Below are positions 2 to 46,103 of a DNA stretch of 64,000 nucleotides, piece after piece. A program made the position numbers and the translations under genes. The stretch is from Bryobacteraceae bacterium (GTDB lineage: Bacteria > Acidobacteriota > Terriglobia > Bryobacterales > Bryobacteraceae): assembly GCA_049698695.1 (NCBI GenBank), contig JBAVYH010000216.1, positions 6,992 through 70,991 on the forward strand, in the 5' to 3' direction. The notes below the pieces were generated by a model, which did not search any database, was not told where the DNA came from, and was given only the letters and a program-made list of their open reading frames with translations. Every line of letters begins with the position of its first letter. The first letter of the stretch is position 1.

Positions 2-1594
2 GCCGGCGACGGCGGCAAGGCTACCCAGGCTTCCCTCAACCTGCCCAATGGAATCGCCTTCGACAGTGCGGGCAACATGTATATCGCGGATACCGGAAAC
101 AACGTGGTCCGCGAGGTGAACACCAGCGGCATCATTTCGACGGTTGCCGGGAATAATGCCTCTGCCTTCAGTGGGGACGGCGGACCCGCCATCGCCGCCA
201 GCTTGTCCGAGCCCACCAGCCTGGCCTTCGATGCCGCCGGCAATCTGTATATCGCCGACACCAACAACAATTGCATCCGCATCGTGACCTCGGACAAGAA
301 CATCAACACCTTTGCCGGGCAATGCAGCTACGCGCTTTTCGAGGGCGATGGCGGGCCGGCCACGAAGGCCAAGTTGAACAAGCCCTACTCAGTGGCGGTG
401 GATGCTTACGGCGACGTCTTCATCAGCGACACTGAAAACGAGCGCGTGCGCGAGGTGACGCCCGATGGCATCATCAACACCATTGCCGGCAACGGCACGC
501 CGGGATTTAAAGATGGCCCTGCGCTCCAGGCCGAATTCTACAGCCCCTCGGGTATGGCTCTCGATGCCTCCGGAAGCATTTATATCGCCGATAAGACGAA
601 CTCCCGCATTCGCAAGATACTGCCCAGCGGTACCGTGGTTACCGTCGCCGGCAACGGAAGTTTTGGCTATTCCGGCAATGGCGTGGCGGCCACCAACGCC
701 TGGCTGGATTTCCCGCAGGGCCTTGGGCTGGACCCCGCTTCCTCCGCTGTTTACATCGCCGACACGCAGAACGACGTGGTGCGGGAGCTGACGGTCTCGA
801 ATGCTTCCAGCCTGCCGTCCGTCAACACCGGTGGCGTGGCGAGCGCCTATGAGTTTGGTGCCCTGGCCTCGCCCGCGCCGGGTTCGTGGATCGAGATCTA
901 CGGCTCCAACCTGGCTACCGGCACGCAAGGCTGGACCACCGGCGATTTCAATGGCAACAGCGCGCCTACATCGCTCGGCGGCACGGATGGCACGCCTGGC
1001 ACGGCAGTAACCATCGGCGGCCAGCCTGCCTACGTCGATTACATCAGCTCCGGCCAGGTCAACGTGCAGGTGCCTTCGACAACACCAACGGGCACGCAGC
1101 CAATTGTGGTCACCTCGGGAACGAATGTCAGCCCCAACCCGCCGCGGACGATCACCATTAGCGCCACGGCGCCCGGCTTTTACGCCCCGTCGCAGCTTCT
1201 GATCGGCGGAAACCAATATGTGGGTGCGTTGTTTTCGAACTCCAACACCTGGGTTCTGCCGCCGGGCGCGGTTGCCGGCTTCACCAGCCAGCGCGCCAAG
1301 CCGGGAGACTATATTACTCTGTACGGCATTGGCTTTGGCCCGGTAATGACGAACCTGCCCGCCGGGCAGATCGCCCAGGGCACCAACAATACCTTGCCGG
1401 TCGGCTCCTTCCAGATTTCTTTTGGCGGCACGGCGGCAACGGTGAGCTATGCGGGTTTGGCGCCCGGCTACGTTGGCCTCTACCAGTTCAATGTGGTGGT
1501 GCCCAACGTTGCTGCCAATGATCTCACCCCAATTACCTTCACCCTGGGAGGCGTGGCCGGCACGCAAACGCTTTACACCGCTATCGGCAACTAG
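2..1594 (+). CDS. Secreted NHL-repeat beta-propeller protein with C-terminal Ig-like Acidobacteria-type module; 5' end lies outside the window
   Basis: The frame stays open back to position 2 (AGDGGKATQASLNLPNGIAFDSAGNMYIAD precedes the first Met). YIAD/FISD...N.RIRK/VREV blades recur and are typical of NHL repeats. The C-terminal ~230 aa (GSWIEIYGSNL...YAGLAPGYVGLYQFNVVVP) resemble the C-terminus of the GH5 protein at 53807-54500. Confidence 0.85.
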   Translation, partial: AGDGGKATQASLNLPNGIAFDSAGNMYIADTGNNVVREVNTSGIISTVAGNNASAFSGDGGPAIAASLSEPTSLAFDAAGNLYIADTNNNCIRIVTSDKNINTFAGQCSYALFEGDGGPATKAKLNKPYSVAVDAYGDVFISDTENERVREVTPDGIINTIAGNGTPGFKDGPALQAEFYSPSGMALDASGSIYIADKTNSRIRKILPSGTVVTVAGNGSFGYSGNGVAATNAWLDFPQGLGLDPASSAVYIADTQNDVVRELTVSNASSLPSVNTGGVASAYEFGALASPAPGSWIEIYGSNLATGTQGWTTGDFNGNSAPTSLGGTDGTPGTAVTIGGQPAYVDYISSGQVNVQVPSTTPTGTQPIVVTSGTNVSPNPPRTITISATAPGFYAPSQLLIGGNQYVGALFSNSNTWVLPPGAVAGFTSQRAKPGDYITLYGIGFGPVMTNLPAGQIAQGTNNTLPVGSFQISFGGTAATVSYAGLAPGYVGLYQFNVVVPNVAANDLTPITFTLGGVAGTQTLYTAIGN

Positions 1595-1614
1595 GGCTAA
1601 GCGGCGTTTGTCTC

Positions 1615-1699
1615 GTAGGGGCAGGGCATGCCCGGCATGCCTTGGCAATCTCGCCGACCTGGCCTGCAAAGGGCCGGCGTCAAAGGCTGCCGGGGCTAC
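1615..1699. repeat. Dispersed GC-rich palindromic intergenic repeat, copy A
   Basis: GTAGGGGCAGGGCATGCCC...GGCAATCTCGCCGACCTGGCCTGCAAAGGGCCGGCGTCAAAGGCTGCCGGGGCTAC aligns by eye with 22791-22876. It lies between convergent genes and contains the GGGCATGCCC palindrome. Confidence 0.7.
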
Positions 1700-1709
1700 T
1701 GCCGTCGAC

Positions 1710-2192
1710 TTACTCGCACACCGCCGGCGTGAGCAGCCACTTCAACACGCCTTTGGGTTCGCGCGCCAGGCGGTCACAATCGATGCGCACCATGGCGGCT
1801 TTTTTCATATCCACCTGGAGCGACGGGCTGGTCAGCAGAAGCGCCACCATGGTGCTCATCAGCGGCTCGTGGCCGGCCAGCAGAATCGCCGGTTCCTCGC
1901 CGCGGCGCCGGATCTCTTCCCATAGATCGTAAGGCGAGGCCTCCGGCAGCAGCGCGCGCCACTCCACTACCTTGCCTTTGTACTCGAGCACTTCCGCCGC
2001 GACTGCCGCAGTCTCGAGCGCGCGCCGCAACGGGCTGGAGACAATCGACGCCGGCCGCACTCCCGCCGCGGCGGCCCGCCGCAGCACGCGGCGCAGCTTT
2101 TCCTTGCCTTCCGCCGTCAGCGCGCGCCCGGCGTCCGGTTGCCCCGGACCGGCGTCTTCGGCGATGCCGTGACGTAACAGATAAATCTGCAT
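1710..2192 (-). CDS. sixA: Phosphohistidine phosphatase SixA (histidine phosphatase superfamily)
   Basis: N-terminal MQIYLLRHGIAED carries the RHG catalytic motif. Size is ~160 aa, with a later GHEP motif (LLAGHEPLM). Confidence 0.8.
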   Translation of the reverse strand: MQIYLLRHGIAEDAGPGQPDAGRALTAEGKEKLRRVLRRAAAAGVRPASIVSSPLRRALETAAVAAEVLEYKGKVVEWRALLPEASPYDLWEEIRRRGEEPAILLAGHEPLMSTMVALLLTSPSLQVDMKKAAMVRIDCDRLAREPKGVLKWLLTPAVCE

Positions 2193-2204
2193 CTCACCCA
2201 GCGC

Positions 2205-3110
2205 TTATTTTACAGGCTGGCTTGTCGCCAGGCCCCGCACCAGCATTTTGGCCAGATCCGCGATCAGCAGCGAGCCGGGGTTGTCCGGCCCCCAATCGGG
2301 CTGGGCGATGCCATCCACCGTGATCGCCATGGCGATACGCCCGGTCTTCGAGTAAACGATGCCGACATCGGACCGCAGGGCATCGAGCGCACCGGTCTTG
2401 TTGGCCAGCGGCAACTCGCCGAACGGGCGACGGATGCCGGTTGTGTCCTGGCAGCGCTTCATCACCGCAATCATTTCGTACGATGCCGCCGGGCTCACCA
2501 ACTCGCCGCGCTCCATGCGCTCCACCAGCGTAGCCATGTCGCGCGGCGTGGAAACGCCCAGTCCGTACTTCTGATTCCTTTCCAGCTTGCCGGCCGCCGA
2601 AATGCCCTGCGGCCCGTTGTTGCCCAGAATCTTGCGCAATGAGCGCGTGGAGCTTAGGCCGATGCGGTCCAGATAGGCGTTGACGCGGTCGGCGGGAAAG
2701 CGCTCGAGGATCATGTTGGTGGCCGTGTTATCGCTCAGCACCATCATCAAGTGCATCACGTCGCGAAGCGGCAGTTGAACGGCGTCGGAAAGCTCGCTAT
2801 CGATCACGCCCGAACCGGCCACTTTTTCGGCCTCGGTGACGGTGAGCCGCTCGTTCCAGTCGAGTTCGCCGCGCGCCACGGCGTCGAACAGCGCCGCCAT
2901 GATGGCCACTTTGATGGTGCTGGCTGTGCGTACCGGTTCGGTTTCGCGGATGCCGATTGCCTCCCCGTTATCCAGGTTTTTGGCGTAAAGGCTGACCTCG
3001 CCCGGAAACTGGGCGATGCGTTTGCGCAACTGGTCGCCGAGCGGCTGCGCCGCGGCTGTGCCCGCCAGCAACCAAAAAGCCGCCATTGCAAGAGCGCGCT
3101 TCACGTCCAT
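2205..3110 (-). CDS. Class A beta-lactamase-like serine hydrolase, secreted
   Basis: SxxK (STIK), SDN (LSDNTA) and KTG (NKTGAL) motifs occur in the correct order. A signal-peptide-like MDVKRALAMAAFWLLAGTAAAQP is present at the chosen start. Alternative in-frame ATGs lie at 3119 and 3131. The 416-aa track ORF has an implausible N-terminal extension. Confidence 0.8.
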   Translation of the reverse strand: MDVKRALAMAAFWLLAGTAAAQPLGDQLRKRIAQFPGEVSLYAKNLDNGEAIGIRETEPVRTASTIKVAIMAALFDAVARGELDWNERLTVTEAEKVAGSGVIDSELSDAVQLPLRDVMHLMMVLSDNTATNMILERFPADRVNAYLDRIGLSSTRSLRKILGNNGPQGISAAGKLERNQKYGLGVSTPRDMATLVERMERGELVSPAASYEMIAVMKRCQDTTGIRRPFGELPLANKTGALDALRSDVGIVYSKTGRIAMAITVDGIAQPDWGPDNPGSLLIADLAKMLVRGLATSQPVK

Positions 3111-3324
3111 CTGCACCATGCGTTCGATCATAACGCAGGCGGAGACCCCGCTTATGAGGCGCGCGATTGAATAGGGGCGACCCAAGGCGGCTGCTCCTGC
3201 CAGCCGCCGCGCAAGTGGGACAGACCATCGCCTTTCGTGGTCTGTCAGGTTCGGCAAGCGCACGACGACAGACGACAAAAACCGATCGTCTATCCTACCG
3301 AGCGCCATGGCGCGATAATGAGTC

Positions 3325-4521
3325 ATGCAAAACATTCTCCCGGTAGCATGTTTTATTGCCGGGTTTCTGCTGGCGTGGCTGGTGCTGCGGGCACGCCGCC
3401 AGGATACTGCAACCGTTTTCCAGGCGCTTTCCGCCGAGGCGCTGGCGCGGAACAATCAGGCGTTCCTCGAACTGGCCCGCGCCAATCTGGCGGAGGCGCA
3501 GACCGCGGCGCGCGGCGATCTGGAAAAGCGCCAGCAGGCGTTCGCGGAGCTGGTGTCGCCGGTGCGCGCGTCGCTCGACAAGGTGGATTCGCGCATTCAG
3601 GAACTGGAAACGGCGCGCGCGGCCGCCTACGCCGGATTGCAGGAGCAGGTGCGCGGCCTGGCCGAAACCGAGCAGCAGCTTCGCGCCGAAACCGGCAAGC
3701 TGGTGACGGCGCTGCGTTCGCCCGCTGCCCGCGGCAATTGGGGCGAGATCCAGTTGCGCCGCGTGGTCGAGATGGCGGGCATGCTGGATCATTGCGATTT
3801 CGAGACGCAGGCCACCGTGATGGGCGAAGAGGGCCGGCTGCGGCCCGACCTGCTGATTCATTTGCCGGCCGGAAAAACCGTGGTGGTGGATGCCAAGACT
3901 CCGCTCGATGGCTATCTCCGCGCCATCGAAGCGGCGGACGAAGCCACACGAAAAGCGAGCCTGGCGGATCATGCCCGGCAGGTGCGCGCGCATCTCACCG
4001 CGCTCGGCCGCAAGTCCTATTGGGAGCAGTTCGACCAGGCGCCGGAATTCGCCGTGCTGTTCCTGCCCGGCGAGTGCTTCTTCAGCGCGGCGCTGGAAGC
4101 CGACCCCTCGCTGATCGAATTCGGCGTCGGCCAGAACATCATCCTGGCCACGCCCACCACGCTGATCGCGCTCCTGCGCGCCGTCGCCTACGGCTGGCGG
4201 CAGGAGAAGCTGGCGGAAAACGCCGCCGAAATCAGCGCGCTGGGCAAGGAACTGTACAAGCGGCTTTCCGACATGGGCGCGCACCTGGGGAGCATGGGCA
4301 AGGGTCTGGAACGCGCGGTCGAGGAGTACAACAAGGCCGTCGGCTCGCTCGAAAGCCGGGTGATGGTGAGCGCGCGCAAATTTGCCGAGTTGAAGACCGC
4401 GCCGCTGGGAGTGGAAATCGCCGAGCTGCAACCAGTGGAAAAGCGGGTGCGGAGCCTCGAAGAAGCGGAGCCCGAGCCCGAGCGCCTTCCGCCGTCCCCG
4501 CCGCCGGCTCGTTTAGAATAG
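3325..4521 (+). CDS. rmuC: DNA recombination protein RmuC
   Basis: N-terminal TM helix, then a long coiled-coil, then the conserved C-terminal block ([27 protein letters not shown]) typical of RmuC. Confidence 0.85.
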
Positions 4522-4528
4522 TAGAAGA

Positions 4529-5854
4529 GTGCCCGCCAAGACCTTCTACCTGGAAACCTTCGGCTGCCAGATGAACGCGCACGACTCCGAAAAGGTAGTC
4601 GGCACGCTGATGGCGAAGGGCTACGCGCAAGTGGCCACACCGGAAGAAGCCGGGCTGGTCCTCTACAACACCTGCAGCATCCGCGATAAAGCCGAGCAAA
4701 AAGTGTACCACCGCTTGCAACAGTTCAAGCGCAACGGGAAGGACAAGGTGATTGGACTGCTCGGCTGCGTGGCGCAGCAGGAGGGCGAGCGGATTTTCGA
4801 ACGCGCCCCGCACGTCGGTCTGGTGTGCGGCTCGGCCAGCTACAACAAGCTCGGCGAGCTGCTGGTGCAGATTGAAGCCGGCGACAGGCGGGTCACCGGA
4901 TTGAGTCTCGATACCGATGAGGCCTTCGACACGCCTTTCACCCGGCGCGACAACCCGCACCGCGCTTACATCGCCATCATCGAAGGCTGCGACAAGAGCT
5001 GTGCTTATTGCGTGGTGCCGTTCACGCGCGGGCCGGAGCGCAGCCGCACCAGCGATAGCGTGATGGCCGAAGCGCGCCGCCTGGCTGCGGAAGGATACAG
5101 CGAGATCCAGCTCCTGGGGCAAAACGTCAACAGCTATCGCGACCCAACGCCGGCCGGCTGGAATTTCGCGGCGCTGCTCGCGCGTGTCGCGGAGATTCCG
5201 GGAATCCGGCGCGTGCGTTACACCACATCCCATCCGCGCGATTTTGGCAAAGACATCGTGGACGCTATGGACGCGAATCCCGTGCTTTGCGACCACGTCC
5301 ACCTGCCGGTGCAGTCTGGTTCGTCGAACGTGCTCGCCAAAATGGACCGGCTGTACACACGCGACGAATACATGCAGCGTATCGGCTGGCTGAAGACCGC
5401 GCAGCGTCCTTATTCCATCACCACCGACATCATCGTTGGCTTTCCCGGCGAGACGGAGAAGGACTTCGAGGCCACGTTGACCCTGCTCGACGAAGTCGAA
5501 TACGATTCGCTGTTCAGCTTCAAGTATTCGCCGCGCCCGAACACGGCCGCCCTCCGCTTCGAGGACCACATCCCTGAGGAAGAGAAGCAGCGGCGCCTCG
5601 AGATCGTGCAGGAGAAGCAGCGCGCCATCCAGATCCGCCGCAACGCGGGGCTCATCGGCAGCCTGAAGGAGGTGCTGGTGGAGGGCCGCAACCAGGCCCT
5701 GGCGCAGTGGATCGGGCGCACTTCGGACAACCGCACGCTGAACTTCACCCATCCCGAAAACGGCGCCGCTTCCCTGGTCGGCCAGTATCTGCCTGTGCGC
5801 GTCACGCGCGCCGGCCCCAACTCCTTGGTGGGCGAGAGCGCAACTGTGGTGTAA
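4529..5854 (+). CDS. miaB: tRNA-2-methylthio-N6-dimethylallyladenosine synthase MiaB (radical SAM methylthiotransferase)
   Basis: FYLETFGCQMNAHDSE N-terminus, radical SAM CDKSCAYCVVP cluster motif and a C-terminal TRAM-like region. GTG start at 4529. Confidence 0.9.
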   Translation: MPAKTFYLETFGCQMNAHDSEKVVGTLMAKGYAQVATPEEAGLVLYNTCSIRDKAEQKVYHRLQQFKRNGKDKVIGLLGCVAQQEGERIFERAPHVGLVCGSASYNKLGELLVQIEAGDRRVTGLSLDTDEAFDTPFTRRDNPHRAYIAIIEGCDKSCAYCVVPFTRGPERSRTSDSVMAEARRLAAEGYSEIQLLGQNVNSYRDPTPAGWNFAALLARVAEIPGIRRVRYTTSHPRDFGKDIVDAMDANPVLCDHVHLPVQSGSSNVLAKMDRLYTRDEYMQRIGWLKTAQRPYSITTDIIVGFPGETEKDFEATLTLLDEVEYDSLFSFKYSPRPNTAALRFEDHIPEEEKQRRLEIVQEKQRAIQIRRNAGLIGSLKEVLVEGRNQALAQWIGRTSDNRTLNFTHPENGAASLVGQYLPVRVTRAGPNSLVGESATVV

Positions 5855-5875
5855 TTGAGTTGGGAGGAGGGCGGC

Positions 5876-6361
5876 ATGGAAGTGGAAATGAAAATTCGCG
5901 GCCTGATGATGGACCCGGTCACCAATATGCCCATCGTCATCCTCAGGGACGTGAGCGGCAATTCTGTGCTCCCGATCTGGGTGGGTGTTTACGAAGCGAA
6001 CGCCATCGCGCTCGAAATCGAGAAGGTCTCCACTCCGCGGCCCATGACCCACGATCTCATCAAGAGCCTGCTGCTCGGCCTCAACACCGCGCTGCGCAAG
6101 GTGGTGGTGAGCGAACTGAAAGACGACACGTTCTACGCCGTCATTTGGCTGGATCGCGACGGGGAAACCATCAGCGTGGATTCGCGGCCGAGCGATGCCC
6201 TGGCCCTGGCGCTGCGCCTCGATTGCCCGATTTACGTGGAAGAGACCGTGCTCAAGTCCTCCAGCAAGGCCACCAACGCCGCCGACAAAGTCAACAACGA
6301 AGAGTTGCGGCGGTGGCTCGAAGGCCTCAATGATGAGGACCTCGGCCGCTATAAGATGTGA
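5876..6361 (+). CDS. Bifunctional nuclease (BFN/DUF151) family protein
   Basis: MKIRGLMMDPVTNMPIVILRD...RPMTHDL...RPSDALALALR is the typical BFN pattern. ATG 5876 is preceded by GGGAGGAGGG. The track start at 5855 is a TTG with no RBS. Confidence 0.75.
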   Translation: MEVEMKIRGLMMDPVTNMPIVILRDVSGNSVLPIWVGVYEANAIALEIEKVSTPRPMTHDLIKSLLLGLNTALRKVVVSELKDDTFYAVIWLDRDGETISVDSRPSDALALALRLDCPIYVEETVLKSSSKATNAADKVNNEELRRWLEGLNDEDLGRYKM

Positions 6362-6663
6362 CGCCCGAAACCGCCGCGCGCCTGGCCGGCTGCGGAATCC
6401 AGTTGGCCGCCGAATCTCCGGAGTACAGCATGTTCACCCGCGATTCCTGCGTGGCGCTAGCGAATCCGGGCGCGGCGGTGGGAATCGGCAGCACAGGTAT
6501 GATGACGGAACGCGGCCTGGCGTTCCTGGTGTGGCGCGAAGGCCTGCCGTATCTCGCCGCCAAGGGCCGCGAAACGCCCGCCAGCTCAGCGCAGGTGGAC
6601 GAGATACGGAAGTTTTCTTTGGATTTGAAACGCGCGCTGGGCGTGGATTCGGGCGAGGCGTAG
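6358..6663 (+). CDS. Hypothetical protein, translationally coupled to the BFN gene
   Basis: GTG start overlaps the upstream TGA stop (GTGA). Codon usage resembles neighbouring genes. No recognisable domain. Confidence 0.5.
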
Positions 6664-6715
6664 CACGCCGCGCCACGCGTCCCTCTGCGCGAAACTGGCT
6701 GCCTCACAAGAACGC

Positions 6716-7927
6716 ATGACGCTCGACGAACAACTTTCTTACCTGCGGAAAGGCATGGCGGAGATCATTCGCGAAGAAGATCTCCGCGAGCGGCTGGTCG
6801 CAGCCGCCGCCTCCGGCCGCAAACTGCGCATCAAGGCCGGCTTCGATCCGACCGCGCCAGACCTGCACCTGGGCCACACCGTGCTGCTGCGCAAGATGAA
6901 ACACTTTCAAGACCTCGGCCACACGGTGATTTTTCTGATCGGCGATATGACCGGCCTGATCGGCGATCCCACCGGGCGCAATGCAACGCGCCCGCCGATG
7001 ACGCGCGAGGCGATTCAAGAAAACGCCGAAACTTACAAGACGCAGGTGTTCAAGATTCTCGACCCCGAAAAGACCGAGGTCCGCTTCAACAGCGAGTGGC
7101 TGGAGCCGATGAAGTACGTCGACATCGTGCGCCTGGCGTCGCACTACACGGTGGCGCGCATGCTGGAGCGCGACTATTTCTCCAAGCGCCTGCGCGACGG
7201 CATCCCGATTTCGATGCACGAGATGCTCTACCCGCTGGCGCAGGGCTACGATTCGGTGGCCCTCCAGTGCGACGTGGAAATGGGCGGCACGGACCAGAGA
7301 TTCAACCTGCTGGTGGGGCGTGAACTGCAAAGCGATTTCGGACAGCCACCGCAGATCGTCTGCACCACGCCGCTGCTCGAAGGCACCGACGGCATCAACA
7401 AAATGTCGAAATCGCTCGGCAATTACATCGGCATCGCCGAGCCGCCCGACGTGATGTTCCGCAAGGTGATGCAGATCTCTGATGAGCTGATGTGGCGCTA
7501 TTACCTGCTGCTCACCGACAAGAGCGAAAGCGAAATCGCCGCCTTGCGCGCGCGTGTGGCGGATGGCTCGCTGCACCCGATGGAGGTCAAGATCGCGCTG
7601 GGCAAAATGATCGTCGGCGATTATCACCCGGCCGCGGAGGCGGAACGGGCGGCCGGGGTCTTCGACAGCGTGGTGCGCCACAAGCAGGTGCCGGACAAAA
7701 TCGAGACCGTCGCGCTTCCGCAGGAAGTGGTGAAGGACGGCGCCATTCGCGTCGACAAACTGCTGGCGCGCATCGGCCTGGCCGAATCGGTTAGCGACGC
7801 CGTGCGCAAGATCAAAGCCGGCGCGGTGGAGATTAATGGCGCGAAATGGACGGCGCTTTCTTGGACGGACAACTCGCCGGAGTTGCTCATTCAAGTGGGC
7901 AAGAACTGGCGAAAGGCCATCCGGTAA
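6716..7927 (+). CDS. tyrS: Tyrosine--tRNA ligase
   Basis: Class I HIGH-type motif (DLHLGH), KMSKS motif and a C-terminal S4-like domain ([14 protein letters not shown]). Confidence 0.9.
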
Positions 7928-7933
7928 GCCGCC

Positions 7934-8779
7934 GTGCGCAAGCTCTATTATTGGAAACTCAAGCGGCGCGAAATCCAGCTCGGAGACCGCACGCTGCTGA
8001 TGGCAGTGCTCAACGTCACGCCGGATTCGTTTTCCGACGGCGGCAAGTACGCCGATCCGGACCGAGCGTTCGCCCGTGCTCTGGAGCTCGAGGAACAAGG
8101 CGCGGACATGCTGGACATTGGGGCGGAATCCACGCGGCCTGGATCGGCGCGCGTCTCCGCTGCCGAAGAGATGCGGCGCCTGATTCCGGTTCTGAAGCGG
8201 CTGAAGGACCGGCTCACCATTCCCATTTCGGTGGATACGTACAAGGCCGAGATCGCCGAGCGCGCGCTCGAATTGGGGGTCGACGTCATCAACGATCCTT
8301 CCGGCCTCACCATCGAACCGCAACTGGCGCGGGTGGTCTCCAATCACGATGCCGGCCTGGTGCTGAACCACATGCGCGGGCGGCCGGAGAACTGGGCCAA
8401 GCTGGGGCCGATGCCCGATCCGGTAGCGGGCATCGCGCGCGACCTCGGCGCCGCCGTCAGCCGCGCCCGCCGCGTTGGCATCGCCGCTTCCAAGCTGGCC
8501 ATCGATCCCGGCCTCGGATTCGGCAAGCGCAAGGAACAGAACACGCTCATTTTGGGCCACCTCTCCGCGCTGGCGGCGATCGATCTGCCCCTCATGGCCG
8601 GTCCTTCGCGCAAGAGCTTCCTCGCTCACCAGGATGCGGAGCAGACTAAGTTCGCCACTGCCGCCGCGGTGGCTGCCTGTGTGCTCGGTGGCGTCCACAT
8701 GGTGCGCGTGCACGATGTGCGCGAGATGCGCGCCGTAACCGACCTGGCCGACGATATTCTTCGCGCGCAGGCGGAATGA
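7934..8779 (+). CDS. folP: Dihydropteroate synthase
   Basis: LMAVLNVTPDSFSDGG, DIGAESTRPG, SVDTYK and INDPSG motifs. GTG start. Confidence 0.9.
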   Translation: MRKLYYWKLKRREIQLGDRTLLMAVLNVTPDSFSDGGKYADPDRAFARALELEEQGADMLDIGAESTRPGSARVSAAEEMRRLIPVLKRLKDRLTIPISVDTYKAEIAERALELGVDVINDPSGLTIEPQLARVVSNHDAGLVLNHMRGRPENWAKLGPMPDPVAGIARDLGAAVSRARRVGIAASKLAIDPGLGFGKRKEQNTLILGHLSALAAIDLPLMAGPSRKSFLAHQDAEQTKFATAAAVAACVLGGVHMVRVHDVREMRAVTDLADDILRAQAE

Positions 8780-8875
8780 CCGCCCGCTGCAACCTCGCTC
8801 CTGGCTCTTCCTCTTGGCGGCCCTGAGCCGTGCGTCTCCTGTATAATAGTCGCGTTGGGCGCCAGCCCATTTCGG

Positions 8876-9346
8876 ATGCCGGACATCAAGAAGAAGCTGC
8901 AGGAGGAAATCGCCACGCTCGAACGCGAGCTGCACGTCGAGCTGCCGAAGGAGATCCTCACCGCGCGCGCCCACGGCGATCTGAGCGAGAACGCCGAGTA
9001 CCATGCCGCCAAGGAGCGCCAGGGGATGGTCAACGCGCGCCTCAATCAGCTCAAGAAGCGGCTGGCCGAGATGTCGATGATCGACTTCTCGAAGATTCCG
9101 CACGACCGCGTCGGCCTAGGCTCTACCGTGGTGGTGCTCGATAGCAAGCGCGACGAAGAGGTAACGTATAGTTTGGTGACCGTTGAGGAGGCCGATGCGG
9201 CCAACGGCAAGATTTCGACCACTTCGCCGATCGGCCGCGCATTGCTCGGCAAGGAAGTGGGTGACGTGGCCCGCGTGCAGAGTCCCAACGGCACCAAGGA
9301 TCTGGAGATCCTGAAGCTGACCACCATTCACGACGTAGTGGAATGA
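8876..9346 (+). CDS. greA: Transcription elongation factor GreA
   Basis: Coiled-coil N-domain with SENAEYHAAKE and a C-terminal ISTTSPIGRALLGKEVGD motif. ATG 8876 is preferred over the track start at 8855. Confidence 0.9.
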   Translation: MPDIKKKLQEEIATLERELHVELPKEILTARAHGDLSENAEYHAAKERQGMVNARLNQLKKRLAEMSMIDFSKIPHDRVGLGSTVVVLDSKRDEEVTYSLVTVEEADAANGKISTTSPIGRALLGKEVGDVARVQSPNGTKDLEILKLTTIHDVVE

Positions 9347-41029: not shown

Positions 41030-43174
41030 TTACGGAACCACCGTGAAATCCGTCCACTGGCCGGCCGCCGCGCCTGTGGTGCCTTTGGCCGCGTTTCGCT
41101 CGGCCACGATCACTTGCAGGTAGTAGTCGCCGGGAGTCATGTTGTCCCCCAGTTTCAACGCGCCGAATACAACCCGGCCGACGACCGGCATGTCGATCAG
41201 CCGGGCCGGCGTCGAGTAGACTTCCTTGCCATCGCGCAGAACCCGCACGCGCGTGGCCATGTCCACATCCGGTCCTTTCTTGCGGCCCTTCTCAACCGCG
41301 CAAAAATATTCCAGCGAACTCCCCCGCTTGAACTGCCGCAGCGCCGGAACGATGTCCAGCATGTCGGGCCTGGCCGACCGGTCGCCGTCCTGCAGGATGA
41401 CACTCGCCAGCGCGAATCCCTTCTTCTTTAGCTCCGGGATCTCGAGGAACTGGGTGGCCGAGCCGATCTTGCCCGTCGTCTGGTCCCGCACCGCAACGCG
41501 AATCTGGTACGCCCCGCGCTTCGGCACCGGCACGTCCAGAGTGTACAAAGCGCCATCCCGCAGCGCCTCGGCCATCTTTCCCGGCGCCACTCGCAGATCG
41601 AAAACGCGGCCCACGGCCGCCAGCGGCTGGTCGCTGGCGCCGGTGGCCACGCCCACCAGCATGACCTGCGCCCAGTCGTTGCCGTGGTCGTCGAGCTTCC
41701 AGGTCAGGTCGGCCGCATTGATGCGCAGAAGATTGCGGACCACCGGGCCTCGCTTCGGCGCTTCGGCGTACAGCGCAGTCAGCCGCACCCCCACGCCGGA
41801 GGACTGGAACGGCGACAACATTGTGGCGCGCAATTGTTCCGCCGGCGTGGTGTAGCTCGGCAGCGTCTCGTCGTCGGTCTCTCCGAAGAACCCGGACCGC
41901 GAGCGAACGTGCAACCCCGCGCGCGTCACCTTCACCTGGATGCGGTGGTAGTCGCTTCTGCCGTTCTTGCGCTGCAATGTGCCTTCCGGCGTTTGAAACC
42001 CCAGCAGGTAGTAACCCTCCTGGTCCTCCAACACCCGCTGCAGGCCCGAATTCAGATCGTTGCCGTTGTAGTAAGCCAGGCCTCCGGTTTTGTCAGCGAG
42101 GTATGCGAGATCCTGTTGCAGGACGTTGTTGACAACGTCTCTGCCGCCGCCAATATGCGTCAGGGCGTTCAGCGCCCCGTTCGCTTCCCCCCGCGTCATT
42201 TGATCCAGTTGCGGGTTGTCCTGCGCGTCCAATTGCAAAGTCTGGAGACCGGTGGCTTGGATCGTGTAGATCACCGTTCCCGAACGGTTCGCCCGGTCAA
42301 TCAAGCGGCGCAGCGCGGCAGTGACGTCGGCGTAACTGTCCAGCGACTCGCCTGTACCAGGGCTTTCAAACAGTTGGATTCCATCGGAGAAGAGCACGAT
42401 GGATTTGCGCCCGGGCATCTCGCGAAGCGCACCCACGATATAGTTGACTGCCCCGAGCGTGCCGACCGTAGTGATGGCAGTGTTCTCGATGTCATACCGC
42501 ACATCGAGCGACCGGGAATCGCCGCTGGGAACAAACCCGGACGCGCCGGCCGGCCCGAACTTGCCATATGGGTCGAAGTAGCTCAGGCCGAAGCGTCCAT
42601 TCGGATTCCAGTGCAAGCCGTCGATGACCGACAGCAGCACTCGCTTATCGACGCTGAATTGCTGCAAGGCGCCCGATCCGGCGCCGGTACGGCAAATCGC
42701 CACCAGGTCGCCCGGCTGCATCTGCTGGTTGACGAACTTGCGCAGCGAACCGCGCACGAATGCCATGCTTTCGAAAGAAAGGCCGAGATCGTCAACCATC
42801 AGCACGATGGTGCGCCGCACGTCTTCGGGGCGAAGCTGCGCCAGCGCGGGAGGTGGTAACGCCGACACGGTGTTGGGCGAACGCTTCGGCCGCTCGGCCT
42901 TGAATTCCGGTGCGGCCTTATGTTCCGATGCCACTTGGACATACGAAAAGTGAGTCAGCTTCTGCAGCTTGCCGTCCTCAAAGACCTGGAAGTCTTCCGG
43001 TTTGAGATCGGTGATGTGGCGCCCTTTGGAATCGGTTACCACGGCGTCCACTTGCACCAAGGTCGAAGTGACGCTGAAAACAGCAGTTGGCTGCTGGGAG
43101 TCCGGAGCCCGCGCCGCGGGCTGCTGCCCGGAAGCGAACAGCGTGGCAAGGAAGATGCCGGCTATTGCCTTCAC
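41030..43174 (-). CDS. Secreted VWA-domain protein (acidobacterial VWFA type), paralogue 2
   Basis: Same architecture and long identical peptide runs as 38847-40997 (e.g. ALYTLDVPVPKRGAYQIR, TIVLMVDDLGLSFESMA). Confidence 0.8.
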   Translation of the reverse strand: MKAIAGIFLATLFASGQQPAARAPDSQQPTAVFSVTSTLVQVDAVVTDSKGRHITDLKPEDFQVFEDGKLQKLTHFSYVQVASEHKAAPEFKAERPKRSPNTVSALPPPALAQLRPEDVRRTIVLMVDDLGLSFESMAFVRGSLRKFVNQQMQPGDLVAICRTGAGSGALQQFSVDKRVLLSVIDGLHWNPNGRFGLSYFDPYGKFGPAGASGFVPSGDSRSLDVRYDIENTAITTVGTLGAVNYIVGALREMPGRKSIVLFSDGIQLFESPGTGESLDSYADVTAALRRLIDRANRSGTVIYTIQATGLQTLQLDAQDNPQLDQMTRGEANGALNALTHIGGGRDVVNNVLQQDLAYLADKTGGLAYYNGNDLNSGLQRVLEDQEGYYLLGFQTPEGTLQRKNGRSDYHRIQVKVTRAGLHVRSRSGFFGETDDETLPSYTTPAEQLRATMLSPFQSSGVGVRLTALYAEAPKRGPVVRNLLRINAADLTWKLDDHGNDWAQVMLVGVATGASDQPLAAVGRVFDLRVAPGKMAEALRDGALYTLDVPVPKRGAYQIRVAVRDQTTGKIGSATQFLEIPELKKKGFALASVILQDGDRSARPDMLDIVPALRQFKRGSSLEYFCAVEKGRKKGPDVDMATRVRVLRDGKEVYSTPARLIDMPVVGRVVFGALKLGDNMTPGDYYLQVIVAERNAAKGTTGAAAGQWTDFTVVP

Positions 43175-43212: not shown

Positions 43213-43220
43213 CTATTAAG
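43213..43220. repeat. Target-site duplication, left copy (CTATTAAG)
   Basis: Identical 8-mer directly abuts both IS ends. Confidence 0.8.
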
Positions 43221-43244
43221 GGTGATTATATACTTAACAAAATA
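43221..43244. repeat. Left terminal inverted repeat
   Basis: GGTGATTATATACTTAACAAAATA compared with the reverse complement of the right end, GGTGATTATATACTTGACAAAACA. The first 15 nt are identical and there are 2 mismatches in 24. Confidence 0.85.
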
Positions 43245-43304
43245 GGCGCGTGAGAAGTCAGCAGACGCGGTTTCTTGGTGTGCCGTGGTGAGACATGGAA
43301 ATAT

Positions 43305-43469
43305 TCAGGCCGTCTTCTTCGCCCGAGCCTTTTTTCTGTGAGCCCGCTTCCACGCCGCCTCTCGTTTCAGGATCTCTTCCTTCGAGACCGTGAACATCGT
43401 ATGGACGGCATTGTTCATCCTCTCAGCGTCCGTGTTGCCGGATACGTGCGGTGCTGGTAGTGGTTTCAT
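43305..43469 (-). CDS. 54-aa lysine/arginine-rich small protein, coupled to the PIN gene
   Basis: ATG overlaps the PIN stop (ATGA). Encodes MKPLPAPHVSGNTDAERMNNAVHTMFTVSKEEILKREAAWKRAHRKKARAKKTA. Below the track size cut-off. Confidence 0.5.
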   Translation of the reverse strand: MKPLPAPHVSGNTDAERMNNAVHTMFTVSKEEILKREAAWKRAHRKKARAKKTA

Positions 43470-43873
43470 GGATTTATCGAAATCACCTTAACGCCACTGG
43501 CTCGATGCATCGGTTTCGTGGATTTTTCCGTCGTTATAAGTTCCTCTGCCTCGGCAACAAGGGCGCATGCCACATGAATTGCGTCGATACCGGAAATACC
43601 GGTTCTTCCGCCTTCATCGATAGCGAGTGTCATAAGTTCGTCGCTGCTTGGCACACGTGTCATGCTGTTCTTGAAGAATTCTTCATAGAACTGCCTCTCA
43701 TCTTCGTTTTTGTGAAAGGTGCATTTCGGCAGCAGTTCAACCTTCACGTAATCACTTGTGACGTATTCCCTCAATGGGTCGTACAAGAACGAAAGGGCTG
43801 TGTCCGCCAGCGCTTTGTCGCCGCGGACAGCAGCAATCAAAACGCCAACATCGATATATGTCCGAGTCGGCAC
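43466..43873 (-). CDS. PIN-domain nuclease (VapC-like toxin)
   Basis: Acidic residues are spaced as in PIN domains: YIDVGVLI (Asp), VKVELLP (Glu), GIDAIHVA (Asp), ITTEK. GTG start. Confidence 0.75.
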   Translation of the reverse strand: MPTRTYIDVGVLIAAVRGDKALADTALSFLYDPLREYVTSDYVKVELLPKCTFHKNEDERQFYEEFFKNSMTRVPSSDELMTLAIDEGGRTGISGIDAIHVACALVAEAEELITTEKSTKPMHRASGVKVISINP

Positions 43874-43889
43874 TTATGCCTGGCCTTAG

Positions 43890-44165
43890 TTATAACCATC
43901 CGCGCGTTTCGTTGATTTCCCGCTCCAGGGCGTCTGGAGACAAAGGCTGGCGGCCGCTGTCAATGAGATGCTGGCGGAGAGACAACACACGTTCCCTGGA
44001 TCGCTCTAACTCGGGCGACATCGTTGTTACCGTACTGCCAACATACACAGCCGGATTCTCATAGCGTGGCACCGCAATCTCCACATTGCATGGGGATATT
44101 ACGTACGAAGGCGGTGTGTTTCTTAGTGCTTCCTCAATCTTCTTCGGATCGATCAACAATAACAT
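43890..44165 (-). CDS. Small protein upstream of the PIN gene (candidate cognate antitoxin)
   Basis: Occupies the antitoxin position, 16 nt upstream of the PIN gene. The start is uncertain: ATG 44165 overlaps the upstream gene by 32 nt, and an internal ATG at 44021 would give 43 aa. Confidence 0.45.
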   Translation of the reverse strand: MLLLIDPKKIEEALRNTPPSYVISPCNVEIAVPRYENPAVYVGSTVTTMSPELERSRERVLSLRQHLIDSGRQPLSPDALEREINETRGWL

Positions 44166-45057
44166 GGAGTGGCTCCCTATTCAAGGTTTGGTCGTAATAG
44201 TGTTTCCGTCTAATCCACTTGAAACCTTCATGTTTCGTGACGGCCGCAATTTCAATCGGGCCGCCAATGATCTGCGGACCCGGAAGAAATCGACTGTACA
44301 TTATTGATGCGTGAACAAGAAACTCGGCGAGGTCTATCGCGTCCTGAATCGGCATCGGTGGAAATACAATAGGAGCCTGCAATCTGGCAACCAAGATGGG
44401 GTTTAATTGCTTGAACAATTGCTCGGGCGATACTGGCTCCTGTTGCCCCTGCGAGGCACTGACCTCAGCCAATATCTGAAACAATAAAGGGCTGAACCCG
44501 ATCACGATCCTCTGAACTACCTCCGGTGCGCCACCCCAACTGATGCCAGCTTGATCTGAGGGACGTAGTTCGCTCGGCGGTGTTGGCTTACCAGCTTTGA
44601 TCTCAATGCCCCATGATTCGCCAAACCTCCCGGTTATTCCTCCAGTCGTCGAGTAGCCACCAAGCAAGAAACCTATATTCATGCCCAAGAGAGTTGCGGC
44701 AGGCTGTTTCTCACATTCGGCACCTAGAAACTTAGCGACTATCTCTGCCACGCCCCGCATCGTGTAATTATCTGGGTCAAATTCGAAATCGAACTGTTTT
44801 GCTTTTTCGCCATCCATTAATACAGCCCGGAGATCTTTCATCAGCGTACCGATAGAGGCGTTGCCAATGCTGCCCGATCCGAACGTTACGATTCCAATCG
44901 GTCTTCCCTTGTAGAGATTAAAAATCTTGTTGGCGTTATCGTATACTTTCGCGACTCCAGCCACGGTCCCTGGAACCACGGACACCGACAGGGTGGATGC
45001 ACTATCGGCGGCAATAACCAGCCCATCGTGAACGGCGATCAAGATCGCTATGCTCAT
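44134..45057 (-). CDS. Proteasome-beta/HslV-like Ntn-hydrolase-fold protein with ~100-aa C-terminal extension
   Basis: After Met removal, SIAILIAVHDGLVIAADSAST aligns position-for-position with the mature beta-subunit N-terminus, giving Ser1 and Asp17. NANKIFNL matches the Lys33 block, TFGSGSIG the Gly47 block and LLGGYSTTGG the GGxD..G block. The ATG is 6 nt after the transposase stop. Confidence 0.65.
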   Translation of the reverse strand: MSIAILIAVHDGLVIAADSASTLSVSVVPGTVAGVAKVYDNANKIFNLYKGRPIGIVTFGSGSIGNASIGTLMKDLRAVLMDGEKAKQFDFEFDPDNYTMRGVAEIVAKFLGAECEKQPAATLLGMNIGFLLGGYSTTGGITGRFGESWGIEIKAGKPTPPSELRPSDQAGISWGGAPEVVQRIVIGFSPLLFQILAEVSASQGQQEPVSPEQLFKQLNPILVARLQAPIVFPPMPIQDAIDLAEFLVHASIMYSRFLPGPQIIGGPIEIAAVTKHEGFKWIRRKHYYDQTLNREPLHVIVDRSEED

Positions 45058-45063
45058 TTACGC

Positions 45064-46047
45064 TTACCTCGATTCTGACGCCTGAGGTTGATCCAACCTC
45101 CGCTCAGGGCTGGCCTTCCCGGTCAGCGCGTCAAACGTGACGCGCTTTCCTACCATACCAGAAACGGCTACGGAAAAGCGTTCAGCGTCCGTCAATTCCC
45201 GACTGTTGAAACGGAACGCCTGTTCATCGAGGTAGCGGAACAGATGGAAGGGCTCAACGCTGACGTAGGTTCCACCGAGACCGCGCTTCAAGAGACTCCA
45301 GAAGTTCTCGATTCCGTTCGTATGCACCCTGCCATCGACATAGGCTACAGCGTGGTCAATCACCTGATGCTGGAATTCGTCAAGCCCCTCGTACGATTTC
45401 AGCGCATCGGTGTAAAGGGCGGCACCCGCCTGGACATGCCGCCGGACCTCAGCCTGAAGTGCATTCTTCTTGCGGTTCGGAACCACCGAGGTGCGGACCC
45501 GACTGTATTTTTCGCCGTCGCCCCGTTCAAGGATACCCATCACGGCGGCCTTGTCTTTCCCTCCAGTGCCAGTGATGACACGCGCACGCTTCGCCGTGTG
45601 CATATTTCGCGCCTTGCCGCCGATAAAAGTTTCGTCCACTTCCACGTGGCCTAGAAGCTTATCGGCAGAATCCGAGTTGAGCATCAGCCGAATCCGATGG
45701 TCCAGAAACCACGCGGTTTTCTGGGTCACGCCAATAGCCCGCGCCACTTCGCAACTGCTAATCCCGTTCTTGGAGTTCACAATCTGCCACATAGCCATCA
45801 GCCATTTGTCCAGACCGATAGGGGAATCCTCCATCACGGTTCCCGTCTTCAGCGTGAACTGGGGAGCATCGTGCTTCTCCCGGCAATGCCACCGGTTGTA
45901 CTTTTTCAGGAATAGCACGTTTGCGGAGCCGCACCGTGGACAAGTGACGCCCTTCGACCAACGGCGAGCAACGAGGTACGCCCGGCAATTCTCGGGCTTC
46001 GAAAAGTATATGATCGCTTCCTGAAGTGTGCTGGGTTCCTGTTCCAT
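45064..46047 (-). CDS. IS1595-family DDE transposase
   Basis: N-terminal zinc ribbon (CPRCGS...WHCREK), HVEVDETFIGG, AAVMGILER, YTDALKSY and TNGIENFWSLLKRG blocks typical of IS1595 transposases. Confidence 0.85.
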   Translation of the reverse strand: MEQEPSTLQEAIIYFSKPENCRAYLVARRWSKGVTCPRCGSANVLFLKKYNRWHCREKHDAPQFTLKTGTVMEDSPIGLDKWLMAMWQIVNSKNGISSCEVARAIGVTQKTAWFLDHRIRLMLNSDSADKLLGHVEVDETFIGGKARNMHTAKRARVITGTGGKDKAAVMGILERGDGEKYSRVRTSVVPNRKKNALQAEVRRHVQAGAALYTDALKSYEGLDEFQHQVIDHAVAYVDGRVHTNGIENFWSLLKRGLGGTYVSVEPFHLFRYLDEQAFRFNSRELTDAERFSVAVSGMVGKRVTFDALTGKASPERRLDQPQASESR

Positions 46048-46053
46048 GCTTTT

Positions 46054-46082
46054 ATTCTAGGGCACTTCGACTGTTTTGTCAA
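46054..46082 (-). promoter_or_regulatory. Putative transposase promoter inside the right IR (leaderless transcript predicted)
   Basis: On the minus strand: TTGACA (46082-46077), a 17-nt spacer, TAGAAT (46059-46054), then ATG 6 nt downstream. No RBS. Confidence 0.45.
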
Positions 46083-46095
46083 GTATATAATCACC
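46072..46095. repeat. Right terminal inverted repeat
   Basis: See the left IR. The element ends ...AAGTATATAATCACC. Confidence 0.85.
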
Positions 46096-46103
46096 CTATT
46101 AAG
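46096..46103. repeat. Target-site duplication, right copy (CTATTAAG)
   Basis: Identical 8-mer to 43213-43220. Confidence 0.8.

Follow-up and report, generated by a model that had tools for sequence, protein, structure and literature searches.

An IS1595-family element of a Bryobacteraceae genome carrying genes for a VapC-like nuclease, a candidate antitoxin and a predicted proteasome-like hydrolase

A 64-kb stretch of DNA (hereafter, the window), taken from a contig of a Bryobacteraceae (Acidobacteriota) genome that was assembled out of a metagenome, contains a 2875-bp segment which is almost certainly an intact, recently inserted insertion sequence (IS) of the IS1595 family, situated in an intergenic site. 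Besides the transposase, the element includes three adjacent open reading frames (ORFs) that are also found together, in the same order, in other genomes, and which very probably form a conserved mobile three-gene module: ORF-A, predicted to encode a proteasome-like N-terminal-nucleophile hydrolase; ORF-B, a candidate VapB-like antitoxin; and a PIN-domain nuclease, a putative VapC-like toxin (A-B-PIN). Taken as a whole, the reading we favor is that of an IS1595 element carrying a VapBC-like pair with its own protease, to which we grant slightly less than an even chance. VapBC pairs and passenger-carrying IS1595 elements are already known, “ISNwi1+” being the ISfinder label for the passenger-carrying ISNwi1 group; the apparent novelty lies in the presence of a proteasome-like gene in a VapBC-type operon, and in its recurrent link with IS1595. 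No prior description of the A-B-PIN combination was found in the literature and databases searched (ISfinder entries lay outside this scope), and none of the five element proteins had a hit in PADLOC. The first-pass annotation of this DNA did not recognize the cargo as any described toxin-antitoxin, defense or IS-accessory module.

The inserted element and its family

The element is bounded by 24-nt terminal inverted repeats matching at 22 of 24 positions, with the outermost 15 nt identical, and both repeats are adjoined by the same perfect 8-mer, CTATTAAG (Table 1). The 15-mer of the repeat ends has two sites only in the window, and none of 100 shuffles contained any match; the 8-mer also occurs nowhere else in the window (two occurrences vs. 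0.22 expected, a count reached in 2 of 100 shuffles). The G+C content ranges from 0.49 to 0.58 within the element and from 0.61 to 0.72 in the flanks. Five ORFs with intact reading frames follow each other on the minus strand (transposase, ORF-A, ORF-B, PIN and ORF-D), and they are tightly joined: 6 nt separate the transposase from ORF-A, ORF-A and ORF-B overlap by 32 nt, another 16 nt lie between ORF-B and PIN, and PIN and ORF-D share the 4 nt ATGA. All these features (24-bp repeats with 15 identical nucleotides and 2 mismatches, flanking 8-mer, 2875-bp interior of lower G+C content and tightly packed minus-strand genes) had been described in the first-pass annotation, and were found as it described them. 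The −35 box of a putative sigma-70-like promoter sits inside the inverted repeat at the transposase end.

The IS1595 family is characterized by the DDE_Tnp_IS1595 domain, terminal inverted repeats and an 8-bp target-site duplication (PMC8101967), and the membership of the window element, already proposed in the first-pass annotation together with the 8-bp duplication as the family norm, is solid. The transposase matches PF12762 over the full length of the domain (1.5e-40), the zinc ribbon PF12760 at residues 19-57 (1.9e-8; 34.5 bits vs. a cut-off of 25.4) and NF033547 (4.3e-53; 180 bits vs. a cut-off of 75), and it possesses the catalytic residues D138, D214 and E247; furthermore, the element has repeats beginning with GG and a duplication of 8 bp. 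An ISNwi1-like placement within the family is plausible but weak. Among 20 reference DDE domains (PMC8101967, S2 File), the window transposase scored equally well with ISPepr2 of the ISNwi1 group (87 bits) and with ISAba36 of the IS1016 group (86 bits). An N-terminal zinc ribbon occurs in all IS1595 groups but IS1016 (PMC8101967), and its presence argues against the latter; the best reference for the related transposases of loci L001, L023, L040 and L036 is ISNwi1 (82-119 bits). We consider the element nearest to the ISNwi1 group and a new member of a known family. Its transposase DDE domain is just 32-36% identical to the ISNwi1-group references, and it therefore represents a new IS. The likeness to passenger-carrying members of this group extends to the DDE_Tnp_IS1595 transposase with its N-terminal zinc ribbon, the GG-starting repeats, the 8-bp duplication and the additional genes that separate the transposase from one end; on the other hand, the low transposase identity and the equal score against the IS1016-group reference set it apart. 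Both window ends read GGTGATTAT, and the termini of relatives are GGGGATTAT and GGGAATTAT, or GGTAATAAT or GGCATAAAT in other members of the same transposase group; the window ends fit ggnnatTAT, the form given in the first-pass annotation for termini of the ISNwi1 subgroup.

Staggered cutting by 8 bp at the terminal repeats is established for the IS1595 family, and the DDE transposase of the window likewise recognizes the 24-nt repeats and makes an 8-bp staggered cut, visible as CTATTAAG at both sides. It is probably transcribed from the putative promoter overlapping the adjacent repeat, and probably shares its transcript with the four genes downstream. Further copies and an empty site, which the first-pass annotation had proposed to look for, were searched for and neither was found: a repeat search of the window and exact-protein look-ups of the transposase and the neighboring glyoxalase did not reveal a second copy of the exact window IS, and the same look-ups gave the same context only, with no empty site. 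An exact-match metagenome scan with the repeat found the same terminus on three related metagenomic elements. The single copy and the missing empty site, along with frameshifted genes in several related elements (L036, L041), would suit an inactive relic whose repeats and duplication were left from an old event. Such a reading is very improbable, given the perfect 8-bp duplication, the five intact ORFs, the presence of the catalytic residues, repeats still matching at 22 of 24 positions, and a contrast in G+C content with the host that has not been erased.

Table 1. Features of the window element, and elements enclosing the A-B-PIN module within IS1595-type ends.
Location	Feature	Position	Strand	Duplication	Basis or remarks
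Window	Target-site duplication, copy 1	43213..43220	.	CTATTAAG	Identical 8-mer adjoins both inverted repeats
Window	Terminal inverted repeat distal to transposase, GGTGATTATATACTTAACAAAATAG	43221..43244	+		22/24 complementary to 46072-46095
Window	ORF-D, 54-aa small basic protein	43305..43469	-		Start overlaps PIN stop by 4 nt (ATGA)
Window	PIN-domain nuclease, 135 aa, VapC-like putative toxin	43466..43873	-		PF01850 2.4e-7; acidic residues; model fold
Window	ORF-B, 91-aa VapB-like antitoxin candidate with novel N-terminus	43890..44165	-		Homology of C-terminal 38 residues
Window	ORF-A, 307-aa predicted proteasome-like N-terminal-nucleophile hydrolase, uncharacterized family	44134..45057	-		Predicted fold and conserved residues
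Window	IS1595-family transposase, 327 aa, intact	45064..46047	-		PF12762, PF12760, NF033547; catalytic residues
Window	Sigma-70-like promoter, TTGACA-17-TAGAAT	46054..46082	-		11/12 consensus; 7 nt upstream of transposase ATG; consensus match only
Window	Terminal inverted repeat, transposase end, GGTGATTATATACTTGACAAAACAG on minus strand	46072..46095	-		Pairs with 43221-43244
Window	Target-site duplication, copy 2	46096..46103	.	CTATTAAG	Same 8-mer as 43213-43220
Window	Complete element, 2875 bp			CTATTAAG	Transposase, A, B, PIN and D on one strand
L005/L040	Carrier element, 2808 bp			ATCCCGCA	
L036	Carrier element, 2937 bp			CAAATTAG	Perfect 27-nt repeats; cargo and transposase on opposite strands
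L001	Carrier element, 6232 bp	2915-9146		CACTCTTG	Extra genes
L020	Carrier element, 2982 bp			TTAACTCG	
L041	Carrier element, 3131 bp			CTACAATG	Repeats 12/16, same mismatch level as chance hits of the scan
L042	Carrier element, 2126 bp	998-3123		CTCCATAG, perfect	A-B-PIN, no transposase

The A-B-PIN module and its proteins

Neighborhood counts were made on 80 genome loci encoding ORF-A relatives. A-B-PIN is present in the same order at approximately 36 of them, mainly in Acidobacteriota, with ORF-B starting inside the end of ORF-A in a constant relative frame. All A proteins linked to B and PIN belong to one clade of the tree, which gives the triad a single origin; gene order, the frame of the A/B overlap and uninterrupted reading frames are kept down to around 50% identity in A and 24-30% in B. 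An IS1595 transposase lies within 6 kb at only 8 of the 80 loci, which indicates that the module works without the IS, and most triads have neither a transposase nearby nor detectable IS ends. The four-gene passenger operon of the first-pass annotation, which had also proposed examining whether the passengers co-occur outside IS contexts, is thus reduced to a three-gene module: A-B-PIN stands, being found mostly with no transposase nearby, and ORF-D is assigned to the IS lineage. We did not read the frameshifts that affect A or PIN at some loci (L036, L041, L049, L064) as decay, since the genomes concerned may have been assembled from long reads and contain indel errors.

The PIN protein has a high-confidence AlphaFold model (predicted local distance difference test, pLDDT, of 95.3), whose best matches among solved structures are VapC toxins (template-modeling score, TM, of 0.67-0.73). 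Within its acidic set, D8, D97 and E116 never vary, and E46 is nearly invariant. The PIN nuclease recognized in the first-pass annotation is therefore borne out by PF01850 and by a VapC-like fold, and we regard it as a VapC-like nuclease whose active site is complete, and as a putative toxin. PIN relatives at 41-44% identity form classic two-gene pairs with a small upstream gene that overlaps by 4 nt, and with no ORF-A. In 32-46 loci, a conserved ORF-B stands between A and PIN. Its C-terminal 38 residues show homology to the small partner proteins of the A-less pairs (hhalign probability 95%, E 3e-8), and a hidden Markov model (HMM) built from the triad B proteins finds such partners at 1e-8; the motif common to both is ...R.IRAEI.ASGE.L.S.EE...E...RRGG. 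The N-termini of the A-less partners (e.g., that of Calothrix) are unrelated to the ORF-B N-terminus. A shared C-terminal motif joined to an unrelated N-terminus suggests a VapB-type antitoxin with an exchanged N-terminal domain, and ORF-B is proposed on these sequence grounds as a VapB-like antitoxin candidate. As for the two small proteins listed in the first-pass annotation, ORF-B can now be described as an antitoxin homologue, and ORF-D as a small basic protein of the IS lineage.

The module resembles type II VapBC systems in its VapC-fold PIN protein with four acidic residues, in the small gene placed upstream, in the adjacent or overlapping arrangement of the genes, and in the homology of the C-terminal segment of ORF-B to the partners in related two-gene PIN pairs. 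Unlike VapBC, it possesses a third, upstream and translationally overlapped gene for a proteasome-like hydrolase, and its ORF-B has no recognizable N-terminal DNA-binding domain, so that there is no evident sign of the autoregulation that VapBC systems typically show. For ORF-B, searches of Pfam and NCBIfam yielded no domain and those of solved structures no sequence match, and the B and PIN profiles gave nothing significant when compared by sequence with solved structures. A distant PIN relative in L097 (3546-4405) is paired with a 152-aa DUF433 protein bearing a B-like C-terminal motif (B HMM 3e-7), amid genes with Schlafen/AlbA_2, helicase and MZB domains; this neighborhood resembles a defense island.

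ORF-A has no Pfam, NCBIfam or PADLOC match, the public name of its relatives is “hypothetical protein” every time, and neither its sequence nor the A profile gave anything significant against solved structures, where only the fold comparison succeeded. The AlphaFold model, built from 40 homologues (pLDDT 76), produced 426 Foldseek matches to solved structures at E ≤ 1e-3 (best E 6e-7; target-normalized TM up to 0.68), and, among the 50 matches listed, all were 20S proteasome subunits or Anbu. Residue 2 is Ser or Thr in 38 of the 40 aligned sequences, and M-S/T opens 129 of the best 149 family representatives. Neither D18 nor K44 varies in the alignment; K44 lies within a NANKIF motif and is taken as the Lys33 equivalent by sequence pattern, not by superposition. 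A Ser/Thr directly after the initiator Met, together with the invariant Asp18 and Lys44, marks an N-terminal-nucleophile hydrolase that lacks a propeptide. By its predicted structure, ORF-A is thus a proteasome-like N-terminal-nucleophile hydrolase with the proteasome-beta fold, in agreement with the hydrolase type named in the first-pass annotation.

The ORF-A family comprises 4859 clusters at 50% identity (E ≤ 1e-3), nearly all of around 270-300 aa and aligned from residue 1. Its distant members (Actinobacteria, Proteobacteria, methanogens) have no conserved neighbor. ORF-A relatives were also found on 36 viral or proviral contigs (L101-L136, IMG/VR); no match to ORF-A was obtained by tblastn among PLSDB plasmids or INPHARED phages, and a PHROGs search yielded only families of unknown function. 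These viral or proviral relatives include variants of about 400 aa resembling phrog_5990, and in L113 and L107 an IS1595 transposase, or a fragment of it, lies next to the ORF-A relative. ORF-A shares with other proteasome homologues (HslV, Anbu, BPH and the PMI clusters) the proteasome-beta fold, an N-terminal Thr/Ser without propeptide and the equivalents of Asp17 and Lys33. The PMI clusters further share with it a helical insertion between H3 and H4, described for PMI-2 to PMI-6 (PMC8665760), and a broad spread that includes Euryarchaeota and phages. It differs from known proteasome homologues in having no detectable sequence match to solved chains and no Pfam model. Fuchs, Alva and Lupas (2021) reported 22 new families of proteasome homologues, for which no genomic context hinted at a function (PMC8665760); unlike them, ORF-A appears in a conserved operon with a toxin-antitoxin-type pair, and on IS elements.

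Carriage by IS1595-type elements

Carriers were sought by scanning for 8-bp direct repeats flanking 16-nt inverted termini, which gave ten enclosures at ≤3 mismatches across all loci vs. around 0.4 estimated by chance. The module is enclosed by IS1595-type ends in at least seven diverged elements (that of the window included), each with its own repeats and 8-bp duplication (Table 1), and the pattern first seen in the window therefore recurs in related, diverged elements elsewhere. L041 was accepted because its ends start with GG and exactly bracket the transposase through ORF-D. L042, with repeats and duplication and no transposase, can be considered a non-autonomous derivative; an extra copy of the repeat, in inverted orientation, lies 78 bp inside its left end. 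In the largest carrier, L001, A-B-PIN is accompanied by seven more small ORFs, including two XRE-type helix-turn-helix genes, and the transposase is on the opposite strand. Transposases of different groups are only 33-40% identical, their A proteins being 59-65% identical and interleaved with non-IS copies, so either the cargo was captured or exchanged more than once, or IS ends decay fast once inserted.

ORF-D follows the IS and not the module. Homologues or look-alikes, sharing the motif F..a..a.L.V.K.E followed by a Lys/Arg-rich tail, are located in group-1 IS elements, either close to an end or beside the transposase, and occur both in module carriers (L041, L020, L001) and in elements whose cargo is other genes (L023, L092, L093); this distribution indicates that ORF-D belongs to the IS lineage. 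L093 (152-2275) has the window termini, a transposase with an N-terminus 84% identical to that of the window but truncated at 152 aa, and an ORF-D 70% identical; unrelated 201-aa and 157-aa ORFs replace A-B-PIN, and its duplication matches at 7 of 8 positions.

Several other structures with IS1595-like ends or transposases were observed. L053, from a Pyrinomonadaceae genome, contains a 1486-bp unit (2382-3867) with an ORF-A relative only and no transposase, whose 16-nt repeats differ at 1 position and whose duplication is AACTTCTG. The 3.9-kb element of L079 (5186-9075) encodes an ISNha5-group transposase (56% to ISNov3) and an ORF-A relative, with no B or PIN; the rest of its cargo consists of a 142-aa ORF, a 199-aa helix-turn-helix protein and a 219-aa ORF with an NPPY methyltransferase-like motif. 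A 1068-bp unit adjoins the A-B-PIN element in L036 (4694-5761), with IS1595-like ends (GGTGATTATGTTAGG... and ...CATAATAACC) and a 269-aa ORF missed by the transposase HMM. In L031, a lone repeat-like end (GGTAAGAATATAGTTG, at ~7811) lies directly downstream of PIN with no transposase nearby, and was probably left by a carrier IS that has since decayed. When looser repeat and duplication criteria were applied around triads lacking a transposase, everything beyond L042 and L053 was noise.

ORF-A might alternatively serve the transposon, for instance as a control on transposition that acts through processing or degradation of a host factor or of the transposase, with B-PIN as an unrelated, linked toxin-antitoxin pair. 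A relatives do occur in IS1595-type elements of two subgroups, sometimes with no B or PIN (L079, L053, L113, L107), and just 6 nt separate the transposase from ORF-A in the window; nonetheless, the scarcity of IS1595 transposases near A (8/80 loci within 6 kb), an A tree that does not track the transposase groups, the opposite strands of A and transposase in L001 and L036, and the absence of A from the close IS relatives L093, L092 and L023 leave this explanation a slim chance.

Proposed function and surroundings of the insertion

In the mechanism we favor, A-B-PIN would be a pre-existing, self-contained module. PIN would act as a VapC-type ribonuclease toxin and ORF-B as its antitoxin, keeping the C-terminal toxin-binding segment with the usual N-terminal domain swapped for a new one. 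Removal of the initiator Met would expose the N-terminal Ser of ORF-A, which would operate as a dedicated protease on ORF-B, probably via the novel N-terminal part of the latter; antitoxin turnover and PIN release would thereby be independent of host Lon or Clp. Such a module would stabilize the carrier DNA, or kill the cell on a trigger, and either effect would explain its repeated pick-up by IS1595-type elements. What the analysis shows is the anatomy of the IS, the predicted folds, the catalytic residues, the conservation of the module and its repeated carriage by ISs; the action of the protease on the antitoxin is put forward tentatively, and the toxicity of PIN and the biological role of the module are inferred. 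It is possible, though we would sooner doubt it than assume it, that A-B-PIN constitutes a new class of three-component toxin-antitoxin (or defense) module, with a proteasome-family hydrolase as the protease of a VapB-like antitoxin, spread by IS1595 elements and their transposase-less derivatives. There are parallels for this logic: in toxin-antitoxin-chaperone (TAC) systems and in Xre/COG2856 or ImmA-IrrE-type pairs, a third or partner protein encoded in the same operon governs the fate of a labile antitoxin or regulator. The proposed module is alike in having an operon-encoded protein to handle the antitoxin; unlike the TAC and ImmA-IrrE types, ORF-A has a predicted proteasome-beta-type fold instead of being a SecB-like chaperone or a zinc metalloprotease, and shows no homology to them.

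Protease, inhibitor and nuclease together are also a common layout of defense systems, and the module could be an anti-phage abortive-infection system with the IS as a mere vehicle, infection triggering ORF-A, ORF-B being destroyed, and the freed PIN shutting down the infected cell. The patchy distribution of A-B-PIN and its carriage on mobile elements would fit this role, as would the ORF-A relatives on the 36 viral or proviral contigs and the dip in G+C content, which shows horizontal arrival. However, PADLOC-DB v2 gave hits for 0 of the 5 element proteins at E ≤ 1, and no other defense genes are conserved neighbors in the 80-locus set; we consider this reading unlikely, while granting it some real probability. 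A further explanation would deny ORF-A any tie to B-PIN, making it a general-purpose peptidase whose place in the operon is a frozen accident of one ancestor, spread horizontally. In its favor, the triad has a single origin in a single clade, members of the A family are mostly solitary, and Fuchs et al. (2021) saw no informative context for any of the new proteasome homologue families (PMC8665760). Its chance is nonetheless small, since the order, the constant A/B overlap frame and the intact frames survive to ~50% A and 24-30% B identity, B differs from the A-less antitoxins in its N-terminus, precisely the part in which one would expect the interface with a new partner, and the three genes travel as a unit within IS boundaries, including those of the transposase-less L042.

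Several observations weigh against the favored explanation as a whole. Neither a second copy nor an empty site of the window IS turned up in the look-ups made, and the subgroup of its transposase is a tie between the ISNwi1 and IS1016 groups. A recognizable DNA-binding domain was not found in ORF-B. A is present on IS1595-type elements without B and PIN (L079, L053, L113), so the IS link may concern A itself; and, as the main weakness, most of the ~4,900-cluster A family stands alone, with no conserved neighbor, which, along with its sometimes solitary presence on ISs, implies that A has an activity independent of B and PIN.

A-B-PIN is the first genomic-context clue to the role of a very large and unstudied family of proteasome relatives. 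If the proposed mechanism were true, it would provide the first assigned function for this huge unannotated family, and the first toxin-antitoxin system bringing its own protease. The function of ORF-A becomes directly testable in this context, by asking whether the hydrolase cleaves the antitoxin. Besides, IS1595-type elements, usually seen as plain insertion sequences, have repeatedly ferried a toxin-antitoxin-type cassette, in one case with no transposase in the carrier, and this carriage bears on the spread of addiction and defense genes in soil Acidobacteriota.

Regarding the insertion site, a 714-aa gene (41030-43174, minus strand) that has no Pfam hit on record begins with GTG 46 nt downstream of the IS, and all the IS genes point toward it. 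The insertion at 43213-43220 may have severed or replaced the promoter of this gene. The next gene downstream encodes a 716-aa paralogue, with 84% nucleotide identity over 182 nt.

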